Source: Escherichia coli (lineage in GTDB: Bacteria; Pseudomonadota; Gammaproteobacteria; Enterobacterales; Enterobacteriaceae). Taken from it: 64,000 nt of DNA. The notes under the pieces are model-generated. The model made no database searches and was not told where the DNA came from. It was given only the letters and a program-made list of their open reading frames with translations. A program made the position numbers and the translations under genes. The DNA lies in NCBI RefSeq assembly GCF_048403405.1, contig NZ_CP183129.1; one strand, given 5' to 3'. Below, piece by piece: positions 44,101 to 53,292 of the stretch. Position 1 is the first letter of the stretch; every line of letters begins with the position of its first letter.

Positions 44101-44799
44101 GTTATAAAACGCTTCGGTGGTCTGCCCGGAGAGCGTGCGCCCGGAGGCGTCGGTGATGGTGCCGGAGATCATAATCGGCAGCTCAACGCCCAGCGCTTCA
44201 AACTCCGTTTTCACCGCAAAGACCGCCGCTTTGGCGTTAAGGGTGTCGAAAACGGTTTCAATCAGGATCAGATCCGCACCACCTTCCACCAGCGCTTTGG
44301 TGGATTCGCGATAGGCCGCCACCAGCTGGTCAAAAGTGATGTTGCGGAATGCCGGATCGTTGACGTCCGGAGAAATAGACGCCGTGCGGTTGGTCGGGCC
44401 GAGAACACCGGCAACGTAGCGCGGTTTCTCCGGCGTGCGGGCAGTCCACTCGTCAGCACAAGCGCGCGCCAGTTTGGCGGCAGCGAAGTTGATTTCCGCC
44501 GATAGGGATTCCATCTGGTAATCCGCCATCGCAATGGTCGTGGAGTTGAAGGTGTTGGTTTCGATGATATCCGCGCCCGCTTCAAAGTAGGCGTTATGGA
44601 TAGCGGCGATCACTGCCGGTTTACTGAGTACCAGCAGGTCGTTGTTGCCTTTGAGGTCGCATGGCCAGTCGGCAAAGAGTTCACCACGAAAATCGGCTTC
44701 ATTCAGTCGATAGCTCTGGATCATGGTGCCCATACCGCCGTCCAGCACCAGAATACGTTCATTTAACTGCGCACGCAGTTGTTCCACTTTGCTGCTCAC
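41116..44799 (-). CDS. metH: B12-dependent methionine synthase
   Basis: ...[31 protein letters not shown]... through the C-terminal ...[11 protein letters not shown]; 1227 aa. I chose the GTG at 44797-44799; the track start at 44820 is seven codons upstream. Confidence 0.95.
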
Positions 44800-44998
44800 A
44801 CTTGCTCCCGACACGCTCAACCCAGATTTAATAAAAATTCAACAAACCATACTGGCATAAACGCATCTGTGGTAAAAGCGACCACCACGCAACATGAGAT
44901 TTGTTCAACATTAACTCATCGGATCAGTTCAGCAACTATTGCATTAGCTAACAATAAAAATGAAAATGATTTCCACGATACAGAAAAAGGAGACTGTC

Positions 44999-45823
44999 AT
45001 GGTCGCACCCATTCCCGCGAAACGCGGCAGAAAACCCGCCGTTGCCACCGCACCAGCGACTGGACAGGTTCAGTCTTTAACGCGTGGCCTGAAATTACTG
45101 GAGTGGATTGCCGAATCCAATGGCAGTGTGGCACTCACGGAGCTGGCGCAACAAGCCGGGTTACCCAATTCCACGACCCACCGCCTGCTAACCACGATGC
45201 AACAGCAGGGTTTCGTGCGTCAGGTTGGCGAACTGGGACACTGGGCAATCGGCGCACACGCCTTTATGGTCGGTAGCAGCTTTCTCCAGAGCCGTAATTT
45301 GTTAGCAATTGTTCACCCTATCCTGCGCAATCTAATGGAAGAGTCTGGCGAAACGGTCAATATGGCGGTGCTTGATCAAAGCGATCACGAAGCGATTATT
45401 ATCGACCAGGTACAGTGTACGCATCTGATGCGAATGTCCGCGCCTATCGGCGGTAAATTGCCGATGCACGCTTCCGGTGCGGGTAAAGCCTTTTTAGCCC
45501 AACTGAGCGAAGAACAGGTGACGAAGCTGCTGCACCGCAAAGGGTTACATGCCTATACCCACGCGACGCTGGTGTCTCCTGTGCATTTAAAAGAAGATCT
45601 CGCCCAAACGCGCAAACGGGGTTATTCATTTGACGATGAGGAACATGCGCTGGGGCTACGTTGCCTTGCAGCGTGTATTTTCGATGAGCACCGTGAACCG
45701 TTTGCCGCAATTTCTATTTCCGGACCGATTTCACGTATTACCGATGACCGCGTGACCGAGTTTGGCGCGATGGTGATTAAAGCGGCGAAGGAAGTGACGC
45801 TGGCGTACGGTGGAATGCGCTGA
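44999..45823 (+). CDS. iclR: IclR repressor of the glyoxylate shunt operon
   Basis: MVAPIPAKRGRKPAVATAPATGQVQSLTRGLKLLEWIAESNGSVALTELA... 274 aa; track ORF trimmed by 13 codons. Confidence 0.9.
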   Translation: MVAPIPAKRGRKPAVATAPATGQVQSLTRGLKLLEWIAESNGSVALTELAQQAGLPNSTTHRLLTTMQQQGFVRQVGELGHWAIGAHAFMVGSSFLQSRNLLAIVHPILRNLMEESGETVNMAVLDQSDHEAIIIDQVQCTHLMRMSAPIGGKLPMHASGAGKAFLAQLSEEQVTKLLHRKGLHAYTHATLVSPVHLKEDLAQTRKRGYSFDDEEHALGLRCLAACIFDEHREPFAAISISGPISRITDDRVTEFGAMVIKAAKEVTLAYGGMR

Positions 45824-46139
45824 CTTTTTCTGGCGGGCAGAGGCAATATTCTGCCCATCATACCTGAGTGGCAATAGAATAAGGGTGTCTGTTAATCGCA
45901 TTGACGCCAAAATAACTTATTGTCATACACTTCACACGCTTTTATTACCTCAGCATTATTTTTAAACATCAAACCACTTAATTATTAACAAAATCGCAAG
46001 ATCTCATTCCACCGAAACTTTTACGGCTGCATTATGAGATTGAGCGATTTATGATATTTCTTTACTTGTAATCATATTAAATTTTTTCACTGTTCTGATA
46101 GTTAAAATTCAAGACATCAATAAACAATGAGATATTTAA

Positions 46140-50049
<3,910 letters not shown>

Positions 50050-50088
50050 TTAATTCGCCCCTCGCCTTACGGAAAGGGGCGTTGGTTG

Positions 50089-51393
50089 TTAGAACTGCGA
50101 TTCTTCGGTGGAGCCGGTCAGCGCGGTGACTGAAGACGTGCCGCCCTGAATAATGGTCGTCACTTTATCGAAATAACCTGTACCCACTTCCTGCTGGTGA
50201 GAAACGAAGGTGTAACCATCTTTCGCGGCGGCGAATTCCGGTTGCTGCACTTTCTCAACGTAGTGCTTCATACCTTCGCCCTGGGCATAGGCGTTTGCCA
50301 GGTCAAACATGTTGAACCACATGCTGTGGATACCTGCCAGGGTGATGAACTGGAACTTGTAGCCCATATCCGACAGCTGCTGCTGGAAGCTGGCAATAGT
50401 TTTGTCGTCAAGGTTTTTCTGCCAGTTGAACGACGGCGAGCAGTTATAAGCCAGCAGTTTGCCCGGATATTTCGCGTGGATAGCTTGTGCAAAGCGACGC
50501 GCCAGTTCCAGGTCTGGCGTGGAGGTTTCACACCATACCAGGTCAGCATATGGCGCATACGCCAGGCCACGGCTGATCGCTTGTTCAATACCTGCATGAG
50601 TACGGAAGAAGCCTTCGCTGGTACGCTCGCCGGTAATAAATTCGCTGTCATATGGGTCGCAATCGGAGGTAATCAGATCCGCCGCATCAGCATCGGTACG
50701 AGCAACCAGCAGGGTTGGAACGCCCGTCACGTCAGCTGCCAGACGCGCCGCGACCAGTTTCTGAATAGCTTCCTGAGTTGGCACCAGCACTTTGCCGCCC
50801 ATATGACCGCATTTCTTCACTGATGCCAGCTGATCTTCGAAGTGAACTGCCGCTGCACCGGCTTCAATCATCGCTTTCATCAGTTCAAAGGCATTCAGGA
50901 CACCGCCAAAACCGGCTTCCGCATCAGCAACGATCGGCAGGAAGTAATCGACATAGCGCGGATCGCCCGGCTCAATGCCCGCGGACCATTGGATCTGATC
51001 CGCACGGCGGAAAGTATTGTTGATCCGCTCCACCACAGCTGGCACCGAGTTTGCCGGATAGAGCGACTGATCCGGATACATGCTGGCCGCCAGGTTAGCG
51101 TCCGCCGCTACCTGCCATCCCGACAGATAGACTGCTTCAATACCCGCTTTCGCCTGTTGCAGCGCCTGACCGCCAGTCAGTGCACCGAGGCTGTTGATGT
51201 AGCCTTTTTTCGACTCGCCGTGCAGCAGACGCCACATTTTCGCCGCGCCCAGTTGCGCCAGCGTGCATTCAGGATTGACTGAACCGCGTAATTTCACCAC
51301 ATCTTCCGCGCTGTATGGGCGAGTAATGCCTTCCCAACGCGGTTGAGTCCACTCTTTCTGTAATTCTTCAATTTGTTGTGTACGGGTTTTCAT
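50089..51393 (-). CDS. aceA: Isocitrate lyase
   Basis: [38 protein letters not shown]... with the KKCGH active-site motif; 434 aa after trimming five codons. Confidence 0.95.
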
Positions 51394-51422
51394 GTGCAGA
51401 TGCTCCATAGTTATGTGGTGGT

Positions 51423-53024
51423 TTACGCTAACAGGCGGTAGCCTGGCAGGGTCAGGAAATCTATTAACTCATCGGAAGTGGTGATCTGTTCCATCAAGCG
51501 TGCGGCATCGTCAAAACGCCCCTGGGAGAAACGTTCTTCGCCCAGTTCGCTGGCAATGACTTTCATCTCTTCGCCCAGCATCTGGCGGAACAAGGCTTTG
51601 GTCACCGGTTTGCCATTGCTCAACGTTTTTTGATGATGGATCCATTGCCAGATTGAGGTACGGGAAATTTCAGCCGTCGCAGCATCTTCCATCAGGCCAT
51701 AAATCGGCACACAGCCGTTGCCAGAGATCCATGCTTCGATGTACTGCACAGCCACGCGAATGTTGGCGCGCATACCTTCTTCGGTGCGTTCACCATCACA
51801 AGGTGCCAGCAGCTGATCGGCAGTAATCGGCGCGTCTTGTTCGCGCATCACTTCAAGCTGATTTTTACGGGAGCCGAGAATGTCGTTGAATACCGCCATT
51901 GCCGTATCCGCAAGGCCTGGGTGGGCAATCCATGTGCCATCGTGACCGTTATTAGCTTCCAGCGATTTATCCGCTTTTACTTTGTTGAGCACCTGGTTAT
52001 TGCGCTCTTCATCTTTGCTCGGAATAAATGCCGCCATACCGCCCATCGCAAAAGCACCGCGTTTATGGCAGGTTTTAATCAACAGGCGTGAGTAAGCATT
52101 CAGGAAGGGTTTATCCATCGTCACTGCCTGTCTGTCTGGCAGGACGCGATCGGGATAGTTTTTCAACGTTTTGATATAACTGAAGATGTAATCCCAACGA
52201 CCGCAGTTCAGACCAACAATATGGTCACGCAGCGCGTGAAGGATTTCGTCCATCTGGAACACGGCGGGCAGCGTTTCAATCAGCAACGTCGCCTTGATGG
52301 TGCCGCGCGGCAGATTAAAGCGATCTTCTGCATAGCTGAAGACTTCGCTCCACCAGGCCGCTTCCTGCCAGGACTGGGTTTTCGGCAGATAGAAATAGGG
52401 ACCGCTGCCCTTTGCCAACAGTGCCTGATAGTTGTGGAAGAAATAGAGCGCAAAATCAAACAGGCTACCGGGGATTGCCTCACCACGCCAGGTGACATGT
52501 TTTTCCGGCAAGTGCAGACCGCGTACCCGACAAATCAACACCGCTGGATTGGGCTTGAGCTGATAAATTTTGCCTGCTTCATTGGTATAGCTGATGGTGC
52601 CGTTAACCGCATCGCGCAGGTTAATTTGCCCGTTGATCACTTTGTTCCAGTCTGGTGCCAGTGAATCTTCGAAATCGGCCATAAAGACTTTCACATTGGC
52701 GTTGAGCGCGTTGATCACCATCTTGCGCTCAACCGGGCCGGTAATCTCTACCCGACGATCTTCTAAGTCCGCAGGAATCCCGCGAATTTTCCAGTCAGCA
52801 TCGCGAATGGAAGCTGTTTCCGAAATAAAATCAGGCAACGTTCCGTTATCGATATCCTGCTGCTGCTGAATGCGCGCTGCCAGAAGTTTATTGCGTTGTG
52901 GCGTAAAATGCGTCACCAGCTCAGTCAGAAATTCTACCGCTTCGGCAGTAAGAATTTGCTTCTCCTGCTCGCCATACGGCCTTATGAAAGCCAGTTCATC
53001 GGTTGTTGTTGCCTGTTCAGTCAT
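51423..53024 (-). CDS. aceB: Malate synthase A
   Basis: [36 protein letters not shown]... 533 aa after trimming six codons. Confidence 0.95.
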
Positions 53025-53089
53025 CGTGCAGCTCCTCGTCATGGATCCGAAAACTTCCCCACTGTGAACGAAGGATCGTTGTGCGCTTT

Positions 53090-53170
53090 TCGTTCAGCAC
53101 AACTAAGACTACTCATTTAAAATGCAAAATCAAAAACAATTTCCATTTTAATTAAAAATACATGATAACT
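53090..53170 (-). promoter_or_regulatory. aceBAK promoter region with a candidate IclR operator
   Basis: AT-rich tract upstream of aceB containing, on the minus strand, AAATGGAAATTGTTTTTGATTTTGCATTTT, which resembles the IclR box (TGGAAAT...ATTTCCA-like); read by eye. Confidence 0.45.
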
Positions 53171-53292
53171 TATTGATAACAATATGAATAAAATTTATTC
53201 ACCTGCTGAGGTGTGTTTCGGAAATAAAAAAGGCACCCGAAGGTGCCTGAGGTAAAGTGCTGAATCGCTTAATGATCGACTATCACAGAAGA

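Follow-up and report, generated by a model that had tools for sequence, protein, structure and literature searches.

The window analysed here is a stretch of 64,000 nucleotides from Escherichia coli (NCBI RefSeq assembly GCF_048403405.1, contig NZ_CP183129.1). It contains part of the E. coli chromosome around the aceBAK operon and the repressor gene iclR, in reversed orientation compared to K-12. The genes and the interval that concern us are the following (bit scores are given with the cut-off of the respective model).

up to 44799, minus strand: metH
44999-45823, plus strand: iclR, the repressor gene (NF008601, 569.5 bits, cut-off 380)
46140-48335, plus strand: arpA/espL4
48304-50040, minus strand: aceK, isocitrate dehydrogenase kinase/phosphatase (NF002804, 941.8 bits, cut-off 488)
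50089-51393, minus strand: aceA, isocitrate lyase (NF011645, 801.8 bits, cut-off 562)
51423-53024, minus strand: aceB, malate synthase A, with its ATG at 53024 (TIGR01344, 830.8 bits, cut-off 594.5)
53025-53292: the metA-aceB intergenic region, 268 bp
53293-54222, minus strand: metA, with its stop codon at 53295..53293

AceB, AceA, AceK, IclR and MetA are all full length and score above the NCBIfam equivalog cut-offs. The IclR protein of the window is identical to that of K-12 at 274 of 274 residues (100%). An earlier note on this DNA had argued that the glyoxylate-shunt circuit is intact, with iclR about 8 kb away. Both points hold: the genes are complete, and iclR lies 7.2–8.0 kb from the aceB start.

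Of 5,426 complete E. coli genomes, 5,425 contain the metA-aceB interval. An allele with at least 99% identity to that of the window is found in just 26 of them; most are 95–99% identical. The interval is also as rich in A and T as the earlier note had described it, with an A+T content of 62% over 53025-53292 and 77% over 53100-53210, compared to 49% for the whole window. When we aligned the metA-aceB region to K-12 MG1655 (NC_000913.3) we found 8 differences in 308 nt, and none at all from 53161 to 53086. Seven of the differences are intergenic SNPs (53273, 53256, 53214, 53213, 53172, 53162 and 53085), all of which fall outside the tract discussed below: 53273 lies in the flank of a Cra site, 53172 at an N position of an IHF core and 53085 in the aceB leader. 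An Rfam search of 44500-54500 returned zero matches.

A few observations on the surrounding genes are worth recording. The spacer between aceA and aceK (50041-50088) is only 48 nt long in the window, compared to 182 nt in K-12. The REP/BIME-like repeats of K-12 are missing, a short GC hairpin (CGCCCCTTTCCGTAAGGCGAGGGGCG) is found instead, and a strong Shine-Dalgarno sequence (AAGGAGAGG) precedes aceK. This short form occurs in at least 717 of the 5,426 complete E. coli genomes, and it could shift the ratio of aceA to aceK expression. For the arpA homologue (46140-48335, 731 aa), NCBIfam gives no match at E ≤ 1e-10; the closest genome labels it "type III secretion system effector EspL4", and K-12 "ankyrin-like regulator". 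It is convergent with aceK, and the 3′ ends of the two genes overlap by 32 nt. In the annotation of the closest genome (NZ_CP128875.1, 8356-8471, corresponding to about 54823-54940 in the window), yjaA is missing between the 5S rRNA gene and yjaB; the K-12 annotation has it at that place.

Motif resemblance of the tract

The earlier note had drawn attention to an AT-rich, minus-strand tract upstream of aceB that resembles the IclR operator class. Read directly from the window, the tract is present exactly as quoted there.

53148..53119, minus strand: the tract, AAATGGAAATTGTTTTTGATTTTGCATTTT, 30 nt, 95–124 nt upstream of the aceB ATG
53131..53145, minus strand: the 15-mer TGGAAATTGTTTTTG, very probably the core of IclR box II, with a perfect left half-site and a degenerate right half

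In the alignment the tract is 100% identical to K-12. How well does it match what IclR is known to prefer? Table 1 of PMC8222616 gives TGGAAATNATTTCCA as the IclR consensus, and TGGAAATTGTTTTTG agrees with it at 10 of the 14 specified positions: all seven in the left half and three of seven in the right half, that is, with 4 mismatches. Sites with 4 mismatches to TGGAAATNATTTCCA occur 28 times in the window, where simulated sequence leads us to expect 22 ± 4. Hence, taken alone, the resemblance of the tract to the consensus is not above chance and proves nothing. A consensus search allowing up to three mismatches misses the aceB site altogether; a search allowing four recovers it, at chance frequency. 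A full-text literature search for the operator string gave no match, and the supplement of a comparative paper on the IclR family is without the E. coli aceB site. It is the position of the tract and its conservation, and not the motif score, that identify the operator. Unlike the motif match, the identity to K-12 together with the invariance of the core across the Enterobacterales is far above chance.

Conservation across the Enterobacterales

Scanning one genome per species for the AceB N-terminus yielded 80 loci. Our footprint set takes in 42 Enterobacterales and the window (n = 43), each with the 306 nt that precede aceB. The sequence AAAATGGAAATnGTTTTTGATTT is present in every one of these upstream regions (43/43), and TGGAAATnGTTTTTG is present in 42 of them, the exception being Moellerella with TGGAAAC. 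Sequences that share both TGGAAATnGTTTTTG and TTGATT range from Escherichia to Photorhabdus. Within the 15-mer, position 8 is the only base that varies freely (T in 29 sequences, C in 9, A in 4 and G in 1); the other core positions are essentially invariant. This one variable position is the "N" at the dyad centre of TGGAAATNATTTCCA.

The invariance extends over the following block.

53126..53149, minus strand: conserved block AAAATGGAAATnGTTTTTGATTTT, operator plus −35 hexamer

Among the 35 Enterobacteriaceae of the set, every column of the block (53149..53126) is 100% identical, save the dyad centre at 80%. This makes it the most conserved stretch of the region, exceeding even the end of the metA coding sequence. 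Over all 43 sequences, the two halves of the aceB operator are equally conserved, the left one following the consensus and the right one not. Some of this conservation must reflect the −35 element and not IclR. Furthermore, the conserved operator and −35 DNA make up the 5′ two-thirds of the tract only (53148..53126), and the remaining third, TTTGCATTTT, is variable promoter spacer, a refinement of what the earlier note had proposed. That note's operator reading stands on K-12 identity, position and conservation; the bare motif resemblance, with 4 mismatches at chance frequency, does not carry it. The case also illustrates that a natural operator can be missed by consensus matching and still be unmistakable by phylogenetic footprinting.

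The aceB promoter and the published footprints

Downstream of the core the footprint set shows two further hexamers, from which a start site can be placed.

53128..53133, minus strand: inferred −35 hexamer TTGATT, found at a fixed offset in 43/43 sequences, with 4 of 6 consensus matches
53106..53111, minus strand: inferred −10 hexamer TAGTCT, 16 nt downstream of the −35, with 3 of 6 consensus matches
53097..53101, minus strand: aceB transcription start, about 53099 ± 2, inferred solely from where the −10 hexamer lies

The first 3 nt of TTGATT are also the last 3 nt of the IclR core. At the −10 offset, TAnnCT or TAnnTT is found in 40 of 43 sequences, with positions 1, 2 and 6 best conserved, and the 16 nt between the two hexamers are variable in sequence. 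Judging from this pattern, TTGATT, 16 nt and TAGTCT would be the signature of a −35/−10 pair. A consensus promoter scan of 52900-53400 did not call any promoter, because the conserved hexamers (4/6 and 3/6) fall below the threshold of the scan; for the same reason we rejected the silent scan as proof that there is no promoter. In the literature covered by our search, including the supplements of three genome-wide start-site studies, we did not find the aceB start site.

PMC2724298 (citing Yamamoto & Ishihama 2003) describes two sites. IclR box II, the primary one, extends from −52 to −19, and IclR bound there keeps RNA polymerase out. Box I, the secondary one, is given as −125 to −99 and is filled at higher IclR concentration; IclR bound to it dissociates open complexes via the alpha C-terminal domain. 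Counted from our start, box II would map to about 53151..53118 and would cover the tract (53148..53119) almost edge to edge, and box I would map to about 53224..53198. Since the start was placed from the −10 hexamer, these footprint coordinates are inferred too, though tightly constrained by two independent anchors. The comparison with the K-12 footprint, which the earlier note had suggested as a check, thus puts the tract inside box II (−52..−19), given a start placed from the conserved hexamers.

A candidate second, weaker box upstream

About 75 bp further upstream lies a candidate for a second and weaker box, which the earlier note did not include.

53206..53220, minus strand: candidate IclR box I core CGAAACACACCTCAG, weak, with 8 mismatches, its start 75 bp upstream of that of the box II core

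At the same −75 offset, other Enterobacteriaceae carry sites similar to TGAAAATCACTTCCC with only 3–5 mismatches. Clear palindromes are found at −85: TGGAACCGGTTTCCT in Serratia, TGGAAGCTGGTTCCT in Yersinia, TGGAATCGATTTCTC in Photorhabdus and TCGAAATTAATTCTC in Rahnella. Sites with up to 5 mismatches cluster at three offsets, −75 (12 sequences), −85 (5) and −58 (7). The spacing of 75 bp agrees with the 73-bp offset of the published boxes, and the weak E. coli copy fits the description of box I as a low-affinity secondary site. ATTTCCG at 53225..53219, which overlaps the T-tract of the metA terminator, was also considered as the box I determinant; after the cross-species comparison we dropped it for 53220..53206.

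The candidate box I core holds two adjacent SNPs at 53214/53213, AC in the window and GT in K-12, and these SNPs could alter the second repression mode in this strain. A third AT-rich, IclR-like 15-mer precedes the box II core by 58 nt, at about 53203-53189, with 6 mismatches in the window. It recurs in Escherichia and Citrobacter, and in another E. coli it reads GGTAAATAATTTTTA, with 4 mismatches. It may be a chance occurrence in related AT-rich DNA. Straight after the metA terminator, a second terminator-like hairpin, CACCTCAGCAGGTG followed by AATAAATTTT (53200-53213), overlaps the inferred box I.

Other elements of the interval

The remaining elements between metA and aceB are listed here.

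53258..53275: candidate Cra (FruR) operator, with GCTGAATCGCTTAA on the plus strand at 53259-53272
53221..53248, minus strand: metA intrinsic terminator AGGCACCTTCGGGTGCCT, from a terminator scan, with the stem-loop at 53248..53231 followed by the T-tract
53166..53178, minus strand: candidate IHF core TATCAATAAGTTA, an exact match to the consensus WATCAANNNNTTR
53025..53099, minus strand: aceB leader, about 75 nt, with a 5′ element GCTGAACGAAAA and a Shine-Dalgarno sequence GAGGAG at 53037..53032

IHF and Cra are known activators of aceBAK, and IclR is its known repressor (PMC9755347, PMC3094197). An 18-bp aceBAK oligonucleotide bound by Cra in EMSA has the sequence TCGTTAAGCGATTCAGCA (PMC5109907). 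The candidate Cra site of the window matches it at 17 of 18 bases, the sole difference being the flanking SNP at 53273. The 14-nt core GCTGAATCGCTTAA is exact, occurs once in the window and shows about 90% conservation among genera. The metA terminator is highly conserved across genera as well. Matches to the IHF consensus WATCAANNNNTTR occur 5 times in the window, where 2.65 are expected. The conservation of the candidate core tracks the motif WATCAAnnnnTTR, in that ATCAA and TTA are kept and the NNNN positions are variable.

The 5′ element of the leader, GCTGAACGAAAA, is conserved and sits where the mRNA is predicted to begin (leader start 53099-53063). Within it, TGAACGAA pairs with TTCGTTCA 16 nt downstream. 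When the 5′ helix is specified by hand, pairing reaches 78.7% of cells, compared to 30–44% in slid controls, and 4 pairs show compensatory changes. RNAalifold returned no consensus structure for the aceB leader, and the leader as a whole folds no better than shuffled sequences (z = −0.09). Support for a 5′ hairpin is modest. The element might act as a stabilising hairpin at the 5′ end or as a palindrome that a protein binds.

The region upstream of iclR

A search for the same box in front of iclR, which the earlier note had also recommended, turned up a much better match to the consensus than the aceB site.

44961-44975, plus strand: TGAAAATGATTTCCA, the IclR autoregulatory box, 24 nt ahead of the iclR ATG, with 1 mismatch

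It is the sole site with up to 2 mismatches in the whole window, where only about 0.03 one-mismatch sites are expected by chance, and it is identical in K-12. Two SNPs distinguish the region upstream of iclR from that of K-12. At 44989 the window reads AAAAAGGAGAC and K-12 reads AAAAAAGAGAC, the better Shine-Dalgarno sequence for iclR; at 44933, in the iclR promoter region, the window has C and K-12 has T. Slightly further upstream, AACTCATCGGATCAGTT (44913-44929) resembles, by eye, the FadR operator consensus, ANCTGGTCNGACNTGTT. Activation of iclR by FadR has been reported (PMC9329746), as have two differences between the iclR promoters of BL21 and MG1655 (PMC3094197).

Interpretation and alternative explanations

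Our results make it highly probable that the tract corresponds to IclR box II and serves as primary operator of the promoter of aceBAK, the glyoxylate bypass operon. The identity to K-12, the geometry of the site, the conservation throughout the order and the intact genes are all observed directly in our data. For the binding of IclR and the way it acts at aceBAK we rely on the literature. Three rival explanations deserve mention. Each covers only part of the data, and even taken together they are improbable.

First, the block could be core-promoter DNA only, that is, a −35 element together with an A/T-rich UP-like element, in which case IclR would bind elsewhere in the intergenic region. It is true that TTGATT lies inside the invariant block in all 43 sequences. 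The non-consensus GTTTTTG is conserved like the left half, which is what contacts with the polymerase would give. However, TGGAAAT, upstream of the −35, is a perfect IclR half-site and invariant, and the only base that varies is the "N" of the consensus. Moreover, the metA-aceB intergenic region of the window contains no IclR-like element with up to 5 mismatches besides the box II core, and an overlap with the −35 is part of the definition of the published box II (−52..−19). We consider this explanation very unlikely.

Second, the resemblance could be due to chance, the AT content serving nucleoid proteins (IHF, Fis, H-NS) rather than IclR. In favour of this, 4-mismatch sites are about as frequent as chance predicts (28 versus 22 expected), the surrounding DNA is 77% A+T and an IHF consensus lies 21 bp upstream. 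Yet AT-richness alone would not yield a 23-nt block that is invariant throughout the order with a variable AT-rich spacer right beside it, and the IHF core lies apart from it, at 53178..53166. Hence, chance seems extremely improbable as an explanation.

Third, and to our minds just as far-fetched, the site could be shared with, or mainly used by, a paralogous regulator of the IclR family such as AllR, whose consensus TTGGAAAWAWTWTTCCAA is similar to that of IclR, with GGAAA/TTTCC arms common to both motifs (PMC8222616 Table 1), and on whose model the IclR of the window scores 231 bits, below the cut-off of that model; however, nothing we found points to AllR at aceB, the aceB site lacks the right arm TTTCC, and the linked regulator is iclR, with its matching autoregulatory box.

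If the tract is indeed box II, its right half is still peculiar. Because GTTTTTGATTT is strictly invariant across the Enterobacterales, like the left half, it is perhaps more than a weak half-site: it might belong to an asymmetric composite element or be read by a second factor. We think this unlikely. One possibility for a composite element is that one IclR dimer sits on the true half-site and the other half is fixed by contacts with RNA polymerase (−35, alpha-CTD). If either reading were true, it could explain why the site has never been "repaired" towards the SELEX optimum.

Under the preferred interpretation, with the tract as box II, the switch would work as follows. An IclR tetramer would recognise the TGGAAAT half-site together with its degenerate partner GTTTTTG. 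The bound region would overlap the −35 hexamer TTGATT, so that the repressor would shut out RNA polymerase. The weak box I (53220..53206) would be filled at higher IclR concentration and destabilise open complexes via the alpha C-terminal domain. The IHF site between the boxes and the Cra site further upstream would activate the operon and thereby counteract IclR. Glyoxylate and PEP would release IclR, and pyruvate would stabilise the active tetramer; for these effects PMC9755347 cites Lorca 2007, with glyoxylate and PEP as inactivators of IclR and pyruvate as its stabiliser. Finally, IclR would repress its own gene via the near-consensus box at 44961-44975.

Comparison with known systems

The aceBAK/IclR switch is textbook E. 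coli regulation. The system described here is already known, which is also how the earlier note had presented it, and since the operator is the same as in K-12 the discovery value is small. For annotation the result is useful: it gives this strain fixed positions for the operator, the promoter, the IHF and Cra sites and the terminator, and the circuit is intact.

We take the known counterpart of the tract to be the K-12 aceBAK IclR box II (reportedly the subject of Cortay 1991, Negre 1992, Pan 1996 and Yamamoto & Ishihama 2003). The sequence of the tract, its position relative to aceB and the repressor protein are all identical in K-12, and the operator shows no differences. The autoregulatory operator of the iclR promoter was reportedly described by Gui and colleagues in 1996. 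In the window it is again the same as in K-12 (TGAAAATGATTTCCA), and it is nearer to the consensus than the aceB site (1 mismatch versus 4). The two sites also differ in placement: the iclR box lies between promoter and start codon, the aceB site over the −35.

The consensus TGGAAATNATTTCCA is said to come from the SELEX study of Pan and colleagues in 1996. Compared to it, the left half of the aceB site is perfect; the right half agrees at just 3 of 7 positions, yet is invariant across the Enterobacterales. Box I, as PMC2724298 describes it (Yamamoto & Ishihama 2003), would correspond to the degenerate 15-mer 75 bp upstream, which would lie inside the mapped −125..−99; here K-12 and the window differ, with GT in K-12 and AC in the window at 53214/53213. 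What is mildly curious about this otherwise familiar operator is only that its non-consensus half is invariant across the whole order.
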